Source: a virus. From it: 64,000 nt of DNA. The notes under the pieces are model-generated. The model saw only the letters and a list, made by a program, of their open reading frames with translations. It was not told where the DNA came from and did not search any database. The position numbers and the translations under genes are program-made. The stretch lies in the UHGV virus genome UHGV-0332176; one strand, 5' to 3'. Positions 22,077 to 57,361 of the stretch are shown one piece after another; position 1 is the first letter of the stretch; each line of letters opens with the position of its first letter.

Positions 22077-23330
22077 ATGAAAACTTATTTAGTTGGTGGA
22101 GCAGTTAGAGATAAATTACTTGGAAAAGAACCACACGATAAAGATTATGTTGTAGTGGGTTCAACTATTGAAGAAATGCTATCACTTGGTTTTACACAAG
22201 TTGGTAAAGATTTTCCTGTATTCCTTCATCCTAAAACAGGGGAAGAATATGCTCTTGCTCGTACTGAACGTAAAACAGGTAGTAAACATACTGATTTTTC
22301 ATTTGAATTTTCTTCTAATATAACTCTTGAAGAAGATTTAATAAGACGTGATTTTACAATTAATGCAATGGCAATGAATATGGAAACAGGTGAAATCATT
22401 GATTATTTTAATGGAAAACAAGATTTAGAAAATAAAATCCTGCGTGCAGTAAGACCTGAAACTTTTATTGAAGACCCTCTTAGAGTATTGCGTGGATGTC
22501 GTTTTGCTGCTCAATTAGATTTTTCTATTGCTCCTGAAACAATGGAATTATTTAAACAAATGGTTTTAGATGGTATGCTAGAACATTTAACTGCAGAAAG
22601 AGTTTGGAAAGAAACTGAAAAAGCATTAGCAATAGTTTATCAATCTGAAAAATATTTTGAAAATTTAAGAAAATGTGGAGCATTAAAACTTTTAATGCCT
22701 GAAGTTAATAGATTATTTGATACTCCCGAACAACTTAAATATCATCCATCGGGAAATTCAGGTAAACATACAATGATTGCATTAACACGAGTTCAAAATG
22801 AAAATTCTTTAACAAAATTCATTGTATTATGTCACGATTTTGGTAAAGGTGTCACACCTGCTGATATTTTGCCAAAACATAGTGGACACGATGAAAGAGG
22901 GTTAGCTGAAATTGATGCTTTTTGTGATAGATTAAAAGTTCCTAATAATTATCGTGAAAATGCAAAAACATTTTGTAAAAATCATATGCGTATGGCTCGT
23001 TTTCCTGAAATGAATGTTAAAAAGCAATATGATATGATTAAAGAACTTTCTAATAATTTTAAAAATATTGAAACTTTACAAATGTTTATTGAAGGTTTTT
23101 ATGCTGATTGGACAGGTGAAAATGAACAAACAGCGTGGAATGATACAAAAGAAGCTGATGATATTACATATGTAATGAAAAAAATTTTTAATATTATGTA
23201 TGGTATTACTTTAAAAGATTTACCAGAAAAAACACAAGAAGATTTAAGTAAACAAAAAGGTGAAAAATTTGGTAAACTTTATCGTGATGCAATGATAAGT
23301 TATTTAAAATTTAATTTGAAAAATTCTTAA
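22077..23330 (+). CDS. cca: tRNA nucleotidyltransferase (CCA-adding enzyme) with an HD domain
   Basis: The N-terminal YLVGGAVRDKLLGKEPHDKDYVVVGS is the class II nucleotidyltransferase head motif. A downstream HD-like motif is present (LCHDFGKG). At 417 aa it is similar to bacterial CCA enzymes. Confidence 0.75.
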   Translation: MKTYLVGGAVRDKLLGKEPHDKDYVVVGSTIEEMLSLGFTQVGKDFPVFLHPKTGEEYALARTERKTGSKHTDFSFEFSSNITLEEDLIRRDFTINAMAMNMETGEIIDYFNGKQDLENKILRAVRPETFIEDPLRVLRGCRFAAQLDFSIAPETMELFKQMVLDGMLEHLTAERVWKETEKALAIVYQSEKYFENLRKCGALKLLMPEVNRLFDTPEQLKYHPSGNSGKHTMIALTRVQNENSLTKFIVLCHDFGKGVTPADILPKHSGHDERGLAEIDAFCDRLKVPNNYRENAKTFCKNHMRMARFPEMNVKKQYDMIKELSNNFKNIETLQMFIEGFYADWTGENEQTAWNDTKEADDITYVMKKIFNIMYGITLKDLPEKTQEDLSKQKGEKFGKLYRDAMISYLKFNLKNS

Positions 23331-23904: not shown

Positions 23905-23932
23905 AAAAGAGGAGCAAAAGCTCCTCTTTTTA
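23905..23932. terminator. bidirectional hairpin terminator between convergent genes
   Basis: aaagaggagcaaaagctcctcttttt. Confidence 0.7.
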
Positions 23933-26890
23933 ATCATTTATACCCCATTTGATATTATCAAGATTTCCATATAATTGTTTTAAGAACCATCCAAATTTTT
24001 CTTTTGTTATTCTAACAGCATCTTCAAAATCTTCATCAGGTGAAATATATATCCATATTAAAACTTCATTATTATCACATAGTGTCCCTGCTATATCACC
24101 ATCAACGTCAAAATCATTATTAATAACACCGTGGACAGCTTCATCAGCATCCCAAATAAATAATGTTTTATTAAATGAATTGTAAAAAAATCTAAATGCA
24201 CCATATGCTGTTTTTGAAAAAGAATTTTTTATCCATTCAGCAGAAGGATTTTTCCAAATAGTTAAATATTTATTTTCTTCTGTCCAATCATCATAAAAAT
24301 CACCTTTATAAAAAATTGATTCGTTAATTTGTTTATCTTTATATATGTTATAAAGTTTTAATCCTGATTCTTTTGGCAATTCATTATATAATGAAAATTG
24401 ACCAACTTTAAATTCTGTATTTCCATCTTGTGAAACAATAAACCATTCTTTTCTTAAAGTTTTAATATCTGGTAAAATATATCTATCTTTATTATAAAGA
24501 ATAGCAACAGGTATATCTACATTAGGTTCTTTCCTTTTAACAGAAGCAACTCTATGTCTTCCTTCGTGATTTGTTACAATAAGTTTTTTATTTTTTTCAT
24601 CAACATCAACTTTTAAAAATGGAATACCATATGGTTTTCTTTCATCAATTTGTTTATCAAACCATTCATCATCGCCATATGAATATTTCGGACAAAGTTT
24701 TAAAAATTGAAATGGATACATAGTAGCAAATAAATTATGACCAATTGTTGCAGGAACATTACCTAATGCATCCATATTATTTTGCCAATTAACATTTCCA
24801 TACCAAGATGATTCATTAATTGAATTGTCCCACATTTTATGTAAAGTTTTATAAATCAAATTTATTTGATGTTTATCAAATTTCCATAATTTATTAATGT
24901 TTTCATCTGCCCATTCAAATGGAGTATTACCATATTTTTTAGACATTGCACACCAATCAGCACACATTTCAATTATTGCATCGTCAGGCATTTTGCCACA
25001 AACATCAGGTATTTGACCATCGTGTGTCCAAGATTTATCCCAAAATTGAGAATGATGAGATGCTTGCTTATAATGTTTATCTTGTGTATTTTTAAATTCT
25101 TTCCATTCATTAGGATTTAATGATTGCTTACCTATCACAAATCCTTTAACATATGGAATAAACATATCAGGTTTTAATTTATCTAAATCGTGATTTGGAT
25201 AATTTTTTCCAACTTTAGATGCATAATAATTAACTAATTGACGATGTTTAGCTAATATTTGTAAAAATTCTTGTTTATCTTCTTCTGATACAATAGTTTG
25301 ATTATATTTTAAATTATTTGATTCATCTAGTAAACCTAAATCGTCATCGGCATATAATTCTTCCCATTTTTCTTTTGGAATAGTATTTGTAGAATTATCT
25401 TTTGAATTATATCCTAATTTATTAAACCAATCACTAAATGTAAAACCCCAAATATCATAATCATTTTTTCTAAACATTACATTAGCAAAACCATCTCTGA
25501 ATTTTTTATCAACTGGATAAATGTATCTTCTAAAAATATCATCGTGAGTTCCGTAATATGCATCCCAAACATAAATATCATCATTAAAATGAGGACCAAC
25601 AATTGCTCTTAATTGTTTATTCTTGGAATTTTTTAATAAATCATTAAATTCTTTTTTAGTAGGATTTTTTAAAATAGTGAAAAAAACGTCATCACCTTGT
25701 ACATCTTTCCATTGAGTAGCATAAAAAAGACTTTCTTCTAAAAATCCATTATTTTTTAAATATTGAGGAATTAAAGTATTATAATAATTAAAAGTTTTTT
25801 TAAAATCTGATATTGCATCAAATTTATTACATTCATAAATTTTACGATAAATTTTATTTTGTGTATATATGACTATTTCAGATGATTCATTGATATTATT
25901 TTGTTGATTTGTATGAGCAATATCTTCTTTTTTGAAAAAACGCTCATCATAAATAGGATGTTTTATATCTAAATCAAAAATATCAATATTTAATATTAAT
26001 GATGAAATAATATCAGTATCACCAGTTTCGCTTTCCACTCTACAATATTGGTCTCCATCTTTATCTACATTGACAGCTTTAACAATCCATTTAATATTAT
26101 TTTCATCTATATATGCCATACCTGGTTCAAATTCAATATAATCATTATCAAACATTACACCAGTATTACCAAATTCAGATTTTCTTTTAACATATCCTTC
26201 ATCTAAATTTCTTGGTTGTTTTTTTATTAAATGAATAAGTTTATTATCTAAAATTGCAACATTATTTGTTCCGCCTTCAGTTAATAAAACTGAATTAAAA
26301 CTTTTTTTAATAATATCTAAATATTGTTCTGTAATTTCCCAATTATCAAGAAAATTAATATCATCATTTTTAAAATCCATCCAAGAATTATAATAATGAA
26401 TATTATACATATCATCATAATATTTAATTTTACCAACTTTTGATTCAAGCCATTCATAATGTGACTTGCTTGATAAATCAAAACAGTTGGATAAATCTAA
26501 TTGGGCAATATAAACCCATTTTCCATATTGTTCAGCAAAATTAATATCTGAAGACCAAAAACTTGGTGTTTTAAATTTATTAATATTATTGACGGGTGAA
26601 CCGTGATAATATACGTTAGAATATGCTGTTTCAAATATTGGTCTGGCAATTATTTTTACATAATCATTTTCAAATACTAATGAATTTTTAACATTTTCAT
26701 TAAGATTTTTAAAAGATTCTGATAAATTTTGAGGTTTATTAAATTGAATTTTTTGACAATTTTTTTTAATATCATCAAAAGAAAACCAATTTAATATGTT
26801 ATTATTATTTAATAATATATTATTATTTTTAATACATTCTACAATAAAAATTTGATGACCAAAACGTATTTTGTTTCCGACTTTTAACAT
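23930..26890 (-). CDS. 986-aa late protein with an ART-fold-like N-terminal region (candidate Alt-like packaged ADP-ribosyltransferase)
   Basis: The N-terminal ..SNVYYHGSPVNNINKFKTPSFWSSDINFAEQYGKW is paralogous to the N-terminus of 2540..3946. A TATAAATA late-promoter motif lies upstream on the minus strand (26926-26933). This is the only long minus-strand gene in the region. Confidence 0.6.
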   Translation of the reverse strand: MLKVGNKIRFGHQIFIVECIKNNNILLNNNNILNWFSFDDIKKNCQKIQFNKPQNLSESFKNLNENVKNSLVFENDYVKIIARPIFETAYSNVYYHGSPVNNINKFKTPSFWSSDINFAEQYGKWVYIAQLDLSNCFDLSSKSHYEWLESKVGKIKYYDDMYNIHYYNSWMDFKNDDINFLDNWEITEQYLDIIKKSFNSVLLTEGGTNNVAILDNKLIHLIKKQPRNLDEGYVKRKSEFGNTGVMFDNDYIEFEPGMAYIDENNIKWIVKAVNVDKDGDQYCRVESETGDTDIISSLILNIDIFDLDIKHPIYDERFFKKEDIAHTNQQNNINESSEIVIYTQNKIYRKIYECNKFDAISDFKKTFNYYNTLIPQYLKNNGFLEESLFYATQWKDVQGDDVFFTILKNPTKKEFNDLLKNSKNKQLRAIVGPHFNDDIYVWDAYYGTHDDIFRRYIYPVDKKFRDGFANVMFRKNDYDIWGFTFSDWFNKLGYNSKDNSTNTIPKEKWEELYADDDLGLLDESNNLKYNQTIVSEEDKQEFLQILAKHRQLVNYYASKVGKNYPNHDLDKLKPDMFIPYVKGFVIGKQSLNPNEWKEFKNTQDKHYKQASHHSQFWDKSWTHDGQIPDVCGKMPDDAIIEMCADWCAMSKKYGNTPFEWADENINKLWKFDKHQINLIYKTLHKMWDNSINESSWYGNVNWQNNMDALGNVPATIGHNLFATMYPFQFLKLCPKYSYGDDEWFDKQIDERKPYGIPFLKVDVDEKNKKLIVTNHEGRHRVASVKRKEPNVDIPVAILYNKDRYILPDIKTLRKEWFIVSQDGNTEFKVGQFSLYNELPKESGLKLYNIYKDKQINESIFYKGDFYDDWTEENKYLTIWKNPSAEWIKNSFSKTAYGAFRFFYNSFNKTLFIWDADEAVHGVINNDFDVDGDIAGTLCDNNEVLIWIYISPDEDFEDAVRITKEKFGWFLKQLYGNLDNIKWGIND

Positions 26891-27731: not shown

Positions 27732-27961
27732 TGTATGCTTTATTAAGTTTTATAATTTCAATGACATTATATGTATTAATATCTTATCCAGTAATGGCAT
27801 TTTTAATATTAGATATAAGTCCAGAAGATTTTTGTGCTTGGTTTGCATTTAATAATGAAAATCTAGCAAAAATATATTTTTATTTTTCTCCAATTACTTT
27901 ACCAATTTTATTTTTATATTTAGTTTATAAAGGAATATTAGATATAAAATGGAAGAAATAA
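27731..27961 (+). CDS. small membrane protein
   Basis: Two hydrophobic helices. Confidence 0.45.
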   Translation: MYALLSFIISMTLYVLISYPVMAFLILDISPEDFCAWFAFNNENLAKIYFYFSPITLPILFLYLVYKGILDIKWKK

Positions 27962-28548
27962 AAAAATATAATCTCCCTGACCTTGATATTGATATGGGTC
28001 AAACAACACGTGATGCAATTTTAAATAAATTGCATCACATTCCTGCATCTAAAATAAATGATAAAGGAATTAATCCGCACGGAGTGGGAATTTATTTTTG
28101 TAATATACCATATGATAGATTAACAGGTTTAGCTTCAATAGATTATAAGCACGCTGAAGAAGATTTAGGATATATTAAATTAGATTTTCTTCATAATACT
28201 GTTTATGATAAATTTACTTCTCGTCAACAAATTTTAAATATTATTAATAATGAACCAAATTGGAATTTATTATATAAAAAAGAAATTGTTGAACAATTAC
28301 CGCATATTAATAATTATTTTACTTTATTAAATCAATTACCGAAAATTAATTCTATTGAAAAATTAGCAATGTTTATTGCTATCATTAGACCTGCAAAAAA
28401 ATATTTAATTGATGAAGTTATTAAAAATGATTGGGAATCTATTAATGATAGAATATGGTTAAAAGAAGATTCAGGATATATGTATAAAAAATCACACGCT
28501 ATTGCATATGCGTTATCAATTATTGTTGCTCTTGGTCAAATTAATTAA
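27949..28548 (+). CDS. hypothetical protein
   Basis: 199 aa. The stop overlaps the stop of the convergent gene 28545..28973 at TTAA. Confidence 0.5.
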   Translation: MEEIKKYNLPDLDIDMGQTTRDAILNKLHHIPASKINDKGINPHGVGIYFCNIPYDRLTGLASIDYKHAEEDLGYIKLDFLHNTVYDKFTSRQQILNIINNEPNWNLLYKKEIVEQLPHINNYFTLLNQLPKINSIEKLAMFIAIIRPAKKYLIDEVIKNDWESINDRIWLKEDSGYMYKKSHAIAYALSIIVALGQIN

Positions 28549-29772: not shown

Positions 29773-30399
29773 ATGAATTGGAATATAGACAGAAATAAAA
29801 ATAAAATAATGATAGATTATTCATTATATTTAAAAAATATTAATAAACAAATAATTAGAAGAATTATAATTAAATCTATTAAAAGAATTTGTAATATTTT
29901 TCAAGTATCTATTAATCAAATAATATTTGACAATAATTTTATTATAGTTATAATAAATGAAGATAATGTTCCTGCGTTATTTGAATTTTTATATTCAATT
30001 AAAACAGCTTTAGAATTATATATTATTGAAAAGGAAAATAATATGAAAGATTTATATCAATTTAAATCTATGTCAGATTTAGAAAATGTAATTAATAAAA
30101 TGCGACTTAATTATGGAGATGAAGAAAATTCTTCGTTAACTGATACCTTTATTATTGAAGGAAATTCTGGATTAACTTATGGTTGGTTAAAAAATGTTGC
30201 TAAATATGTTGGTCCAACAAATGTATATATTGTAGAAAGTGATTATAACAATATTATGGAAGGTGATTTAGATTTCATTGATGAATTATATATTGATATA
30301 AAAAATATTGATTGGTTATCTCCGAAAAATTATGTTGATATTACTGCAAGTGAAATATCATTTGATAATAATGGTTTAATGAGATTATGGTGGGATTAA
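29773..30399 (+). CDS. hypothetical protein
   Basis: 208 aa. Confidence 0.5.
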   Translation: MNWNIDRNKNKIMIDYSLYLKNINKQIIRRIIIKSIKRICNIFQVSINQIIFDNNFIIVIINEDNVPALFEFLYSIKTALELYIIEKENNMKDLYQFKSMSDLENVINKMRLNYGDEENSSLTDTFIIEGNSGLTYGWLKNVAKYVGPTNVYIVESDYNNIMEGDLDFIDELYIDIKNIDWLSPKNYVDITASEISFDNNGLMRLWWD

Positions 30400-30779
30400 T
30401 GTGGTGGCAAATTTTTAAACGGTTTTGGCATTGTGATAAAACTAAATTAAGTATTCAAACTCAATTTAAAGCTGATATGCCTGATACAAAATATACTGCT
30501 GAAATATGTAACACAATAAAATTAGATGATTTATATTTTTCTGTTTATATATCTAAATGTTGGTATACTGATGGATATAGTGTTTATGGATATTCAATTA
30601 AATTTAATGATGAAGAAATTTGTATTTATGGAATAAAATATTTAATTTTATTTTCTTTAATAGAAATAGTTATTAATTATTATAATTGGAAAAAAGAAAT
30701 TATAAAAAAAATTAATCAAAAAAAAGAATATAAAAAAAGATTAAAAGAAATTACAAATAAAATTAAGGAAGGGGAATAA
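30387..30779 (+). CDS. hypothetical protein
   Basis: 130 aa. Confidence 0.45.
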   Translation: MVGLMWWQIFKRFWHCDKTKLSIQTQFKADMPDTKYTAEICNTIKLDDLYFSVYISKCWYTDGYSVYGYSIKFNDEEICIYGIKYLILFSLIEIVINYYNWKKEIIKKINQKKEYKKRLKEITNKIKEGE

Positions 30780-30781
30780 TT

Positions 30782-31174
30782 ATGGTATATTTAGAGGAAT
30801 TGTTGCCCGAGTTCAAAAAAGGGATAAAGATTAGACGGAAACCTTGGCGTGAGGGTAGATATATTAAATTAAAAGGATTGTACGCCAGAGATGAGTACGG
30901 CAACTGCTACTTTTTAGAACCTGATGAGATAGCAGCCGATGATTGGGAATTTTACCAAGAACCTATTGACTGGGACTACATCATCAAGAACAAGTGCTTA
31001 TGCTGGTTTTGGAATAATGATAATGAAGGTATTGGAAACGTTGGAATATTATCAGATGTTTGTCAAGAAATGGAGTATCCTTTTACCAGTTTTTATCAAG
31101 GAAATAAATTTATTTGGAAATTTTGTCGTCCTGTCTACCGAAACGAGGTAATTTTTTATAATAATAAACAATAA
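30782..31174 (+). CDS. DUF2829-like protein (Thoeris anti-defence Tad2-like)
   Basis: The N-terminal LEELLPEFKKGIKIRRKPWREGRYIKL and C-terminal EPDEIAADDWEF match the DUF2829 pattern (gKkvrR.gW..g.yi ... DllAeDWe). The first ~220 nt are visibly GC-richer than the flanks. Confidence 0.55.
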   Translation: MVYLEELLPEFKKGIKIRRKPWREGRYIKLKGLYARDEYGNCYFLEPDEIAADDWEFYQEPIDWDYIIKNKCLCWFWNNDNEGIGNVGILSDVCQEMEYPFTSFYQGNKFIWKFCRPVYRNEVIFYNNKQ

Positions 31175-31202
31175 AGCAATAAAAAGCTATCATTCTTTTT
31201 TA

Positions 31203-31210
31203 TATAAATA
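31203..31210 (+). promoter_or_regulatory. T4-type late promoter motif TATAAATA
   Basis: 27 nt upstream of the ATG at 31238. Confidence 0.5.
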
Positions 31211-31237
31211 TTATTATTAAATAAGGATGGTAAACGT

Positions 31238-32056
31238 ATGCAAAAAATATATTTGTTTGTAAAAAAAGGATATTATTATAATTTATCATCTGGTCAAACA
31301 GGAGAAACACGTATGTTTAATGTTCCAATGTATAATACAGATTTTAAATTATGGAAAGGTATTGATAATAAAATACAATTTTCTATTCGTGACCACGACC
31401 GTAAAGCATATCCTTTAAGAGATAGAGAAATCTTTTTAAATATTATAAATCCAAAATTAAACACTAAATTAGTTAAAAAATTATGGTGTTTAGATGCATA
31501 TAAAGGTTTATATGAAACGACAATAACGGAAGTTGAATTAAGAGATTTTGAACCAACTGCATATCAAGCATCAGTAATTACTAAAGACCCAGAAGGGTGT
31601 GAAGATATGTTATATACTGGTGTTGATTGGAATCCAATATTTAATATTATTGTTGAAGAAGGATTTAGAGATGTTTTTAAACCATCTATTGAATTAGACC
31701 CTTCAAAATTTTTACATAATTTTTATATCAATAGAGAAGACGGACAACGTTATGACTATTATGTTTCTTCAAGAATTAAAGCTGATGAAACAAATTCTCA
31801 TACAGCATCTATAACTGTTAAGGATTATTTTTTAGGAACAATAACTATGGAAGGTTCAGCTGAAGTTAATCCACAAGAAAATAGTGATATAGATTGGTTT
31901 CCAATAGAAACAAAAGAATATACTGATGAAACAAAAGTTGAAGCTGAAACATTTCAATTTAATAAACAATTAAATTGTATGTGGGTACGTTTTAAATATA
32001 CTATTAAATCAGCAAATTATAAGGGTATAGTTTCTGAAATTTTTTATAGAAATTAG
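31238..32056 (+). CDS. hypothetical late protein
   Basis: 272 aa. The stop overlaps the convergent gene 32053..32532. Confidence 0.5.
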   Translation: MQKIYLFVKKGYYYNLSSGQTGETRMFNVPMYNTDFKLWKGIDNKIQFSIRDHDRKAYPLRDREIFLNIINPKLNTKLVKKLWCLDAYKGLYETTITEVELRDFEPTAYQASVITKDPEGCEDMLYTGVDWNPIFNIIVEEGFRDVFKPSIELDPSKFLHNFYINREDGQRYDYYVSSRIKADETNSHTASITVKDYFLGTITMEGSAEVNPQENSDIDWFPIETKEYTDETKVEAETFQFNKQLNCMWVRFKYTIKSANYKGIVSEIFYRN

Positions 32057-36865: not shown

Positions 36866-38152
36866 ATGGCTAATGAAAATGCAACTAAAATTCAATTAAG
36901 ACACGATTCATCTGCAAATTGGTTTGCTAATAATCCAATTTTAGCTGAAGGTGAAGTTGGTATTGAAATTGATAAAAATAGAATGAAAGTTGGTAATGGT
37001 GTAAGTCATTACAATGATTTAGAATATTTTTCTGATACTGTTGATTATAATGAATTAATTAATAAACCACAAATTAATAGTATCGGTTTGATGGGTAACT
37101 TATCTTTACACGAATTAGGTATTCAAGCAGAAGGCGATTATGCAACTGTATTAACTTTAACAGAAGGTTTATCAGAAAAAGCTGATAAAGCTGATACTTA
37201 TACTAAAACTGAAATTGATACTGAATTTTCTTCACTTATTAAAGTTCCAGCTATTGATGGACACGATGGAGAATGGTTAACTAATAAAGATGGAGTAGTT
37301 AAATGGGAAAATCTTGGTGATTCAGTTGTTACTAATGAAGAATTAACAACTGCATTAGAACCATATGCTTTAAAAACTAATATACCTACAAAAAATTCTC
37401 AATTAGAAAATGATTCTGACTTTGTAACTTTAACTGAATTAGCAGAATCTGATTATGTAACAAATACAAATTTAACAACTAAATTAGGTGAATATGTTAC
37501 TAATACTGCATTAGCTGAAGAAGGATATGCAAAAAATAGTGAATTAGCTCAAGTTGCAAAATCAGGTTCATATAATGATTTAACAAATAAACCAACTATT
37601 CCAACTGTTCCTGAAAATATTACAACTCAAGGAAATACTTTTAACGGAGCTAATCAATTAGTAAAATTAGAAGCTGATGGTAAATTACCAGCATTAGATG
37701 GAAGTAAATTAACTGGAATAAGTTCTGGAACATCTGATTATTCTGTATTATCTAATAAGCCACAAATTAATTCAGTTGAATTATCAGGTAATAAAACATT
37801 AGACCAATTAGGAATTCAAGCTAAAGGAGATTTTGCAGTTAAATCAACTACATTATCTGGATATGGTATTACAGATGCATATACAAAGACTGAATCTGAT
37901 AATAAATATGCAACTCAAACTTCTTTGAATTCTTATTTAACAACTGCATCAGCTTCTACAACTTATGCTACTAAAACAGAATTAGTAGATAAAGCTGATG
38001 TTGAAGATATTCCACAAGGAAATCAATTAATGGCTGGACAAGCTCCTACTGTTGCCGATATTAGTGCAGAAACAGTTACAGATATTCCAGGTTTAATTAG
38101 TGCAATTAATGCAATTTTAGCTCAATTAAGAACACGTAATGTTATTGAATAA
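36866..38152 (+). CDS. tail fibre protein (repeat-containing; paralog of 38170..38925)
   Basis: Repeats YTKTEIDTEF, LSEKADKADTYTKTE and SNKPQINSVELSGNKTLDQLGIQAKG. The C-terminus LAQLRTRNVIE is shared with 38170. Confidence 0.6.
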   Translation: MANENATKIQLRHDSSANWFANNPILAEGEVGIEIDKNRMKVGNGVSHYNDLEYFSDTVDYNELINKPQINSIGLMGNLSLHELGIQAEGDYATVLTLTEGLSEKADKADTYTKTEIDTEFSSLIKVPAIDGHDGEWLTNKDGVVKWENLGDSVVTNEELTTALEPYALKTNIPTKNSQLENDSDFVTLTELAESDYVTNTNLTTKLGEYVTNTALAEEGYAKNSELAQVAKSGSYNDLTNKPTIPTVPENITTQGNTFNGANQLVKLEADGKLPALDGSKLTGISSGTSDYSVLSNKPQINSVELSGNKTLDQLGIQAKGDFAVKSTTLSGYGITDAYTKTESDNKYATQTSLNSYLTTASASTTYATKTELVDKADVEDIPQGNQLMAGQAPTVADISAETVTDIPGLISAINAILAQLRTRNVIE

Positions 38153-38169: not shown

Positions 38170-38925
38170 ATGACAGAAAGAATTGATATTAAATATGTAT
38201 TAAAAGATACAAAAGCAAATTGGACAAGTTTTAATCCAATTTTATCAAAAGGTATTATGGCTTATGAAACTGATACAAATTTAATTAAATTATTTGATGG
38301 TGTTTCTGATTATAATTCATTAGCATATATTGGTGGAACAGGTGGTTCATCTACACCAACTGATTATGCATCTTTATCTAATAAACCACAAATTAATTCA
38401 GTTGAATTATCAGGTAATAAAACATTAGACCAATTAGGAATTCAAGCTAAAGGTAATTATTTGGTTTCATCTGATTTAAATAATTATGCTTTGAAATCTG
38501 AATTACCTACAAATACAAGTGATTTAACAAATGATTCTGGATTTTTAACATCTATTCCTTCAGAATATGTTACTGAAACAGAATTAAATAGCAGTTTAGA
38601 AGATAAAGCTGATACTGCAACAACTTTATCTGGATATGGTATTACAGATGCATATACAAAAACTGAAGCTGATGGTAAATATGCAACAAAAACTGAATTA
38701 TCTAATAAAGCTGATACAAGTGCATTATCTAATTATGCAACTACATCTGCTTTAACAGAAGGATTAGCAGAAAAAGCCGATACAAGTGCATTACCTGCTT
38801 CAACTTCTTTAATGAATGGAACTGCTCCTTCTGTTGCTGATTTTGCAGGAGCTGATGCAGAAGGATTAAAAACAGAATTAAATGCATTTTTAGCCCAACT
38901 TAAAACTCGTGGTGTAATTGCATAA
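38170..38925 (+). CDS. tail fibre protein (paralog of 36866..38152)
   Basis: Shares a 77-bp near-identical DNA block (38377-38453 versus 37751-37827) and the C-terminus LAQLKTRGVIA. Confidence 0.6.
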   Translation: MTERIDIKYVLKDTKANWTSFNPILSKGIMAYETDTNLIKLFDGVSDYNSLAYIGGTGGSSTPTDYASLSNKPQINSVELSGNKTLDQLGIQAKGNYLVSSDLNNYALKSELPTNTSDLTNDSGFLTSIPSEYVTETELNSSLEDKADTATTLSGYGITDAYTKTEADGKYATKTELSNKADTSALSNYATTSALTEGLAEKADTSALPASTSLMNGTAPSVADFAGADAEGLKTELNAFLAQLKTRGVIA

Positions 38926-57285: not shown

Positions 57286-57361
57286 GGTTCGGTGACAGAA
57301 CGATTAATGTACTCGCCTGCAAAGCGATGTTTAGTGGGTTTGACTCCCACCCGAATCTCCA
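57286..57361 (+). tRNA. possible tRNA-Cys (GCA) with a non-canonical D and T loop
   Basis: Acceptor ggttcgg/ccgaatc, anticodon loop ctGCAaa, T arm gtggg tttgact cccac, ends TCCA. It lacks the G18G19 and T54-psi55-C56 consensus, so it may be a pseudo-tRNA. Confidence 0.3.

Follow-up and report, generated by a model that had tools for sequence, protein, structure and literature searches.

A GC-rich stretch in a jumbo-phage gene for a two-domain Tad2-like protein corresponds to an intragenic segment of temperate-phage type

The window, as the whole stretch of DNA analysed here is called, comprises 64,000 nt of the UHGV virus genome UHGV-0332176. Its source is a jumbo phage of about 288 kb from gut metagenomes, which is AT-rich (25% GC). 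The window encodes a Lon-like protease, a baseplate hub, virion proteins, an SSB, a CCA-adding enzyme and 20 tRNAs, together with a DNA polymerase fragment that is related to those of Rak2/121Q-type phages. The only matches among the GenBank phages were a remote similarity of the DNA polymerase to Rak2/121Q-type jumbo phages and two hits of 46% identity in 'Dulem virus 29'; no cultured relative was found in that collection. The gene considered here has the following parts.

30765..30774, + strand: Shine-Dalgarno-like sequence AAGGAAGGGG, 7 nt 5' of the ATG, read directly from the DNA.
30782..31174, + strand: complete ORF with ATG start, 130 amino acids plus stop, encoding a two-domain Tad2-like protein.
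30782..30958, + strand: N-terminal minimal Tad2-like (DUF2829) domain, aa 1-59.
30959..31171, + strand: C-terminal small β-barrel domain, aa 60-130, Sm/Hfq/Tudor-like.

This ORF (+ strand, 130 aa) has exactly the coordinates given in an earlier note on this DNA. Both peptides quoted there are present in the protein. One, LEELLPEFKKGIKIRRKPWREGRYIKL, spans aa 4-30; the other, EPDEIAADDWEF, spans aa 46-57 and had been called C-terminal, but is in fact in the middle of the protein, at the end of the first domain. The window protein is identical to P0390 and to NCBI DAH71084.1, a record that is already labelled DUF2829. The stop codon of the preceding ORF, at 30777-30779, abuts the gene, so that co-transcription with two small upstream ORFs is probable. 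Nothing convincing above background was found near the gene as a promoter or terminator. Its neighbours in the window are ORFs of unknown function and genes for a virion structural protein, tail-fibre-like proteins and an endolysin.

GC content is 39.1% in the first 220 nt of the gene and 25.8% in the window as a whole. This agrees with the earlier description of about 220 GC-rich nucleotides, and with a foreign patch mapped below to gene nt 33-222. At the 200-nt scale the maximum in the gene region is 41% GC (z 3.0, 99.2nd percentile). The GC-richer stretches of the window all lie within the tRNA array at 55.3-63.1 kb, where ARAGORN identifies 19 tRNAs and Rfam alone adds one at 57286-57358, which accounts for the last remaining peak at 57.3 kb. 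Codon usage gives a sharper picture. The GC3 of codons 1-73 is 0.479, compared with 0.088 +/- 0.046 for all in-frame 73-codon windows from 65 ORFs (z 8.5), a deviation far outside the variance of the window, contrary to the refuting condition named in the earlier note; the windows with a GC3 this high make up 0.07% of the total, and every one of them is inside this gene. GC1 (0.41) and GC2 (0.29) of the same codons are both ordinary, and the GC excess is confined entirely to synonymous positions. The normal GC1 and GC2 rule out amino-acid composition as the source of the anomaly, and an embedded structured RNA is ruled out by Rfam, which has no match at E ≤ 1 across 30300-31500. The GC3 of the whole gene is 0.359; the runner-up gene in the window has 0.20, and the mean of the window genes is 0.103 +/- 0.043.

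Comparison with close relatives locates the anomaly to the base. Four syntenic contigs of up to 233 kb (L001-L004) are 98.9% identical to the window across 16 kb and carry the gene in the same slot. Their protein, P0003, has 72% overall identity to the window protein and an identical C-terminal half. Between the window and these sister genomes there are 190 differences in 16 kb, and 95 of the 190 fall inside 30800-30999. The alignment contains a divergent block at 30814..31003 with identical DNA at its flanks, and from 31004 on the window and the sister genomes are identical. The GC-rich allele was traced through a second protein, P0002, which combines the N-terminal half of the window protein with a different C-terminal half and is encoded on the contigs L012 and L013. 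The segment and its junctions are as follows.

30801..30813, + strand: 5' crossover interval, 13 nt, TGTTGCCCGAGTT, common to the donor, native and chimeric alleles, within the LEELLPEF motif.
30814..31003, + strand: foreign GC-rich patch of 190 bp, gene nt 33-222, codons 12-74.
31004..31008, + strand: 3' crossover interval, TGGTT, common to the donor, native and chimeric alleles, within the CLCWFW motif.

At these junctions there is an abrupt change in how closely the window gene matches the native (L002) and the donor-type (L012) alleles, given here as nucleotide identity.

Gene nt 1-32: 96.9% to native, 90.6% to donor-type.
Gene nt 33-222: 52.7% to native, 98.4% to donor-type.
Gene nt 223-393 (the 3' 171 nt): 100% to native, 46.9% to donor-type.

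Informative sites are divided between donor and native as 94:0 inside the patch and 0:95 outside it (Fisher p 2e-56). Three base differences in two codons separate the patch from L012, and both codons are changed synonymously. No DNA shared by the window and L012 was found outside the patch, the flanks included. The interval 30400-30800 has 32 differences from L002; it was considered as part of the same transfer and rejected, since it has no similarity to L012 and its differences are scattered point changes. Read from these alignments, the GC-rich stretch is shown to be a 190-bp gene-conversion tract in a resident jumbo-phage gene.

The window is a metagenomic assembly. Apart from that circumstance nothing positive speaks for an artefact or a non-coding cause (assembly chimera, amino-acid composition or embedded RNA), and the chance that one of them is responsible is negligible. 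The homologies at the junctions are just 13 and 5 nt long, too short for mis-joins in an assembly graph; the GC1 and GC2 values and the Rfam result given above argue against the other two. In addition, independent assemblies from several sources place the chimeric allele (P0390) on at least 220 contigs, the longest of 288.9 kb. The native allele (P0404) is present on at least 155 contigs, the longest of 288.3 kb. A further protein, P0037, appeared to be a third type of C-terminus and was rejected as a frameshifted copy of the same gene. An exact-match search of viral_contigs with a 27-nt piece of the patch gave zero matches.

The protein belongs to a large family. A word-indexed search returned 1018 homologues, nearly all of 125-135 aa, and an exhaustive search gave 554 clusters at 50% identity. 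Column entropies reveal three near-invariant blocks (aa 1-18, 55-77 and 115-127) that alternate with two hypervariable cassettes, V1 and V2; the values are about 0-0.5 bits for the blocks and rise to 2-3.6 bits for the cassettes. The internal segments are as follows, with entropies of the individual segments where available.

30836..30943, + strand: hypervariable cassette V1, aa 19-54, entropy 1.5-3.3 bits.
30944..31012, + strand: conserved block C2, aa 55-77, WEFYQEPIDWDYIIKNKCLCWFW, entropy about 0.1-1.4 bits.
31013..31123, + strand: hypervariable cassette V2, aa 78-114, of the native jumbo-phage type and 100% identical to L002.

C2 runs from the end of the N-terminal domain through the linker into the C-terminal domain, whose first helix and strand it includes. 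With respect to this scheme, the tract is shown to replace cassette V1, which is most of the N-terminal domain, while both the initial 32 nt and the entire C-terminal half remain native; both crossovers are shown to lie within motifs that are conserved family-wide.

Cassette exchange is general in the family. Pairwise identities in V1 and in V2 are correlated with r = 0.23. There are 264 pairs in which V1 is at least 90% and V2 at most 40% identical, and 41 pairs with the reverse pattern. Between them, 41 types of V1 and 61 of V2 make up 87 combinations. By these sequence comparisons V1 and V2 assort almost independently, and the window contains one recent case of a process that is common in the family. 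A diversity-generating retroelement was considered as the source of the hypervariability and rejected: the variation of V1 and V2 in the family includes indels and unrelated sequence, and no reverse transcriptase was seen among the scanned ORFs. Nearby Mtd_N genes have a 97-nt repeat in common with 7 mismatches, which are not adenine-specific.

Mosaicism is expected in phages, and cassette exchange occurs in polymorphic toxins and tail fibres. Work by De Paepe and colleagues from 2014 (PLoS Genet) reportedly describes phage mosaicism through relaxed homologous recombination by Rad52-like/ERF annealing proteins. As in that process, a variable segment has passed here from one diverged homologue to another, and the crossovers fall in short stretches of conserved sequence; the donor likewise encodes Rad52-like and Gp157 genes. 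As in the polymorphic toxins and tail fibres, conserved blocks flank the variable cassettes. The present case differs from known mosaicism in that the exchange took place inside a 393-nt gene, between a temperate and a jumbo phage, across a GC gap of 16 points; it differs from the toxin and receptor-binding examples in that a probable anti-defence protein is affected.

The donor-type gene is part of a locus of 41% GC that contains an integrase gene, HTH repressor-type genes, Rad52-like and Gp157 genes, and baseplate and sheath genes. Because of this gene content L012/L013 is a temperate myovirus or prophage. In the integrase-bearing temperate loci (L009-L012 and L014) the gene ends the early region, 0.5-1 kb upstream of the integrase. 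Accessory genes typically occupy this place. Directly upstream of the donor gene is a NUMOD4/HNH_3 endonuclease gene, a neighbour that prompts the mere idea of conversion driven by a homing endonuclease. Recombination probably occurred during jumbo-phage infection of a lysogen or during co-infection with the temperate phage, and the Rad52-like annealing protein of the donor may have aided it. Prophage copies are found mainly in metagenome-assembled genomes of gut Alphaproteobacteria ('Azospirillum sp. 51_20' and others) and also in Succinivibrionaceae and Gastranaerophilales; these prophage hosts are a hint, and no more, as to a common host of donor and recipient.

Judged from composition and from the distribution of relatives, the direction of transfer is from temperate phage to jumbo phage. 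An identity of 98.4% is by itself silent on direction. Three observations make a transfer from the jumbo phage to the temperate phage extremely improbable. The GC3 of the patch is 0.46, which matches the donor over the same codons (0.444) and the genes of the donor locus (0.383 +/- 0.112; donor gene and locus together span 0.44-0.52) and is about 8 standard deviations above that of the jumbo-phage genes. Diverged relatives of this V1 type, at 72-89% nucleotide identity, are all in temperate-phage loci of 41-42% GC. Finally, the jumbo-phage copies of this V1 type that were read, those of the window and of the independent Logan contig L005, are 99.9% identical across the gene and differ at just 1 of 393 nt.

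The GC-rich stretch had been interpreted in the earlier note as a sign that an anti-defence gene was recently acquired by horizontal transfer. If so, the whole gene would be a canonical Tad2 and the GC island the inserted gene. The whole-gene GC3 is indeed the highest in the window, and the native parts of the gene are also raised (0.196 for the 3' part and 0.24 for the native allele, against 0.10 for the genome); this fits an older acquisition, and an older whole-gene acquisition from a GC-richer source is possible. Recent arrival of the entire gene is very improbable, since the same slot is occupied in genomes that are about 99% identical, the differences are confined to nt 33-222 while the 3' 171 nt are 100% native, the flanking DNA has no match to the donor, and the protein is not a canonical Tad2, as described below. 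What survives of the claim is that the GC-rich DNA is foreign, as a 190-bp intragenic segment. These results effectively exclude a whole-gene transfer in recent times, transfer in the opposite direction, an assembly artefact, an embedded RNA and an effect of amino-acid composition.

The resemblance of the protein to DUF2829, for which the earlier note gave the accession PF10991 (the DUF2829/Tad2-like family is PF11195), lies in the fold. The profile check proposed there does yield a match to PF11195, at 19.6 bits (E 0.0014; aa 5-42 against profile positions 4-40 of 73), which is below the gathering threshold of 25 bits. PF11195 is matched at E < 0.01 by 26 of 41 relatives, the best at 9.7e-6, and one relative, P0057, has a precomputed PF11195 match. 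A weak match to a family of unknown function was obtained in PHROGs. No Tad2 chain was retrieved from the PDB by profiles of either the full family or the N-terminal domain alone, so homology had to be established through structure. An AlphaFold model, predicted as a monomer from a 41-sequence alignment, has two domains and a mean pLDDT of 84.9. The predicted elements of the N-terminal domain are a helix at 4-12, strands at 17-19, 28-31 and 34-37, a helix at 47-50 and a strand at 55-57, and the Tad2 core fold (α1, antiparallel sheet, C-terminal helix and D-W strand) is present in the model. Its top matches in a Foldseek search of the PDB are all sponges of the Tad2 family, with probability 1.00: SPO1 Tad2, ModTad2, HgmTad2/AcrIIA7 and SptTad2. 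At the level of the predicted fold, the proposed likeness to Tad2/DUF2829 therefore holds for the first ~59 residues. The C-terminal domain is modelled as five strands forming a strongly bent small β-barrel; it is assigned to no family, and no Sm, Hfq or Tudor family of Pfam matches the protein at E ≤ 10. For the native allele, the predicted structure (pLDDT 74) has the same topology and a longer helix, 47-56 instead of 47-50, at the position of the ligand-contacting helix of Tad2.

The two-domain architecture as such is already in public databases, since proteins in BFVD match over the full length. The top match there is a 133-aa 'Thoeris anti-defense 2-like domain-containing protein' with 127 aligned columns. 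Two-domain Tad2-like proteins of similar length in BFVD are A0A8S5P724 (Herelleviridae sp., 133 aa), which is a full-length structural match (127 columns, E 7e-7) with 23% identity and only distant sequence kinship, and proteins of the Lactobacillus phages Iacchus and Semele. A cassette structure is not reported for them. The Tad2-Acb4 and Tad2-Sequestin/PF21825 fusions (PMC12265669) likewise join a Tad2-type domain and a second small domain in a short phage protein.

The ligand pocket was compared with that of canonical Tad2 using a 38-sequence Tad2 alignment, the solved ModTad2 and HgmTad2 chains, and the sequence of SPO1 Tad2 (gp34.65) from NC_011421, which was checked against the published residue numbers. 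In SPO1 Tad2 the ligand is contacted by W25, N26, W73, S76, T78 and D79 (bioRxiv 10.1101/2023.05.01.538930), and in HgmTad2 by W21, N22, W87, S90, T92 and D93 (PMC10680739). The confirmed sponges have in common G-W-N-G-K and W-x-x-S-x-[TS]-D-x-L-A-x-D-W, and N26 does not vary among the 38 canonical homologues or among the solved Tad2 chains compared. An hhalign comparison of the family with canonical Tad2 aligned 24 columns, covering α1-β1-Trp-β2 only (E 0.007, probability 6%), in which W22 corresponds to W25 and R23 to N26. Simple pairwise alignments to Tad2 are ambiguous in the middle of the domain. The remaining positions were mapped without gaps, with the D-W ending (W55 = W85) and the predicted helix 47-50 as anchors, and not by superposition; this gives D37 = D67, Y43 = W73, E46 = S76, D48 = T78 and E49 = D79. 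Conservation of these positions among 121 family members is as follows.

Position 22 (SPO1 W25): W in 119 of 121 (98%).
Position 37 (SPO1 D67; anchored mapping): D in 64%.
Position 43 (SPO1 W73; anchored mapping): Y, H or F in 75%.
Position 49 (SPO1 D79; anchored mapping): E or D in 74%.
Positions 23, 46 and 48 (SPO1 N26, S76 and T78): highly variable.

Position 23 is R in the window protein and R, S, E, D, P, K or G through the family. The pocket stretch of the window protein reads Y43-F-L-E46-P-D48-E49-I-A-A-D-D-W55; the motif W73-x-x-S76-x-T78-D79 is absent from it, and the aromatic and acidic positions alone are kept. Also missing from the window protein is the β2-β5 insertion, which in SPO1 consists of residues 36-59 (α2, the dimer interface) and in HgmTad2 of residues 32-72 (the cyclic-dinucleotide pocket) (PMC10680739). 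The anchor tryptophans are accordingly 32 residues apart here and 59 apart in SPO1 Tad2 and ModTad2, and a tight β2-β3 hairpin is predicted at aa 28-37. Tad2 sponges are homotetramers whose ligand pockets lie between protomers; they bind gcADPR, His-ADPR, N7-cADPR or cyclic nucleotides and protect phages against Thoeris, CBASS or Pycsar. Because the missing insertion contains the SPO1 dimer-interface α2, a Tad2-style pocket-forming tetramer may not form in the same way. In comparison with the Tad2 sponges (SPO1 Tad2 gp34.65, ModTad2, HgmTad2 = AcrIIA7 and SptTad2; PF11195/DUF2829), sequence similarity is sub-threshold, N26 and S-x-T-D, invariant there, are unconserved here, and there is an extra C-terminal β-barrel of 70 aa. 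The N-terminal domain amounts to a minimal Tad2 core whose pocket is partly conserved; the protein should not be filed as canonical Tad2 because N26, the S-x-T-D motif and the β2-β5 insertion are absent. The likeness to Tad2 claimed earlier thus stands for the fold, borne out by the structural comparison that the earlier note had called for, and falls for family membership in the strict sense, given the sub-threshold profile score, the missing pocket motif and insertion, and the additional domain.

The explanation we favour, and consider the probable one, is that a resident gene carries a V1 tract from a temperate phage and encodes a Tad2-like accessory protein that probably sequesters a nucleotide signal. 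The product would be an accessory protein of host interaction (anti-defence), probably a Tad2-like oligomer that sequesters a small nucleotide-derived immune signal. By the putative mapping V1 contains the positions equivalent to the Tad2 pocket (W22, R23, D37, Y43, E46, D48 and E49). Since the positions that line the Tad2 pocket fall in V1, a swap of V1 would switch specificity, altering the ligand or recognition by the host. The conserved blocks would carry the scaffold and the oligomer interface and double as handles for homologous recombination. Homologues of Tad2 show wide variation in ligand through variable parts (PMC12393519, PMC10680739), and Tad2 is frequently fused with other sponge domains (PMC12265669), which makes the C-terminal barrel a candidate for a second module. 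A sponge function is plausible. The jumbo-phage gene adjoins virion and tail-fibre genes and is in no evident early or anti-defence cluster, which counts against the sponge reading.

The same fold could be used otherwise, for example in binding a sensor or effector of host defence or another host protein, and the cassettes would then be contact surfaces in an arms race or a means of escape from host recognition. This possibility is rather unlikely, with observations on both sides. The polar pocket residues of the confirmed sponges (N26, S76 and T78) are unconserved, the dimerisation insertion is missing, and hypervariability extends across most of the second domain (V2), which is Tudor/Sm-like. 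A Tudor/Sm-like fold often serves in protein or nucleic acid binding. Against it, the pocket Trp is kept in 98%, an aromatic residue at the W73 position in 75% and an acidic residue at the D79 position in 74%; all experimentally characterised proteins of this fold among the matches are sponges; and confirmed Tad2 proteins also change their ligand through variable regions.

A wider extension of the favoured sponge reading to the family of more than 1000 members is speculative and on balance unlikely. The family would be a plug-and-play anti-defence scaffold, with the three blocks as oligomer core and recombination handles, V1 (a Tad2-type pocket) and V2 (a second β-barrel that binds a ligand or target) as independently exchangeable cassettes determining what is bound, and temperate and jumbo phages sharing one pool of specificities. 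If this were true, the window would hold a nearly unaltered specificity switch, with three synonymous changes in 190 nt.

These results indicate that the GC island is an intragenic cassette replacement and not a new gene, and that the protein resembles Tad2 in its fold but is not a canonical one. The family defines a large two-domain branch of the Tad2 superfamily with a conserved-variable-conserved-variable-conserved build. The locus provides a base-resolved, dated case of DNA exchange between a temperate and a jumbo phage, which means that both phages must have a common host. The exchange hits the part of a probable immune-evasion protein where the putative specificity-determining positions lie. 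What the case adds is its resolution, the class of gene concerned and a natural allele pair: two natural alleles that differ only in V1 are a ready pair for the question of whether V1 sets specificity for the ligand or the defence system.

This jumbo-phage population has a second variable locus, a gene of 986 aa in the window.

Window 23930-26890, minus strand: 986-aa gene; counterparts in the sister genomes L001 (2720-6109), L002 (3071-6109) and L004 (3397-5970)

Among genomes that are ~98% identical, the gene differs in length: its product has 1129 aa in one form and 1012 aa in another, and a third form is divided into two products of 588 and 224 aa. A total of 30 differences are clustered at window 26000-26199, inside the gene. 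In relatives the gene has DUF5662, and in L002 ART-PolyVal as well. The Tad2-like gene itself is directly preceded by a divergent ORF.

Window 30387-30779, plus strand: ORF directly 5' of the Tad2-like gene

Compared with L002, which carries the native allele, this ORF has 32 scattered point differences (about 8%, against a background of about 0.5%), and it shows no similarity to the temperate-phage donor locus, L012. It is a local divergence hotspot that adjoins the swapped cassette and is separate from the cassette swap. The donor Tad2-like gene has a different neighbor, which it overlaps by one base.

L012 9288-10001, plus strand: free-standing NUMOD4/HNH_3 endonuclease gene, directly 5' of the Tad2-like gene

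It is conceivable that the L012 endonuclease stimulated gene conversion of the neighboring Tad2-like gene.

Other genes in the window and in the sister genomes concern the tail fibers, the relationship to cultured phages, and translation.

Window 36866-38152 and 38170-38925, both plus strand: two neighboring genes, each starting with an Mtd_N domain (PF18454)
Window 27949-28548, plus strand: 199-aa ORF matching a PHROG 'DNA polymerase' family
Window 57286-57358, plus strand: tRNA (Rfam RF00005, 47.5 bits)
L001/L002 19505-19726, plus strand (~ window 40.27-40.5 kb): ribosomal protein S21 gene (PF01165), called in the sister genomes
22077-23330: CCA-adding enzyme gene

The two Mtd_N genes have repeated modules in common; 37731-37827, for instance, is 93% identical to 38357-38453. 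A template/variable pair of a diversity-generating retroelement was ruled out because the mismatches are not adenine-specific; the repeats are duplicated tail-fiber modules. Nucleotide similarity to cultured phages is confined to the 199-aa ORF, where Rak2/121Q-type jumbo phages of Enterobacteria are 66-74% similar. The tRNA is picked up by Rfam and not called by ARAGORN; it explains why GC peaks at 57.3 kb and brings the array at window 55.3-63.1 kb to 20 tRNAs. Together with the S21 and CCA-adding enzyme genes, this array points to extensive translation-related cargo.

Two database proteins relate to the Tad2-like gene or its minimal domain. P0037, considered as a variant with an unrelated C-terminus, was rejected as a frameshifted copy of the Tad2-like gene, its tail being an overlapping +1-frame ORF (window 30939-31151); such cases call for caution when domain architectures are counted in metagenome protein sets. 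P0324, a large protein (943 aa) found in the deep search, combines Clp_N-like repeats with five tandem minimal Tad2-like domains. The ends of these copies read W-E, then R/I/L, then Y/F and lastly E (WERYE, WELFE, WEIFE). The minimal Tad2-like domain is evidently a portable module.
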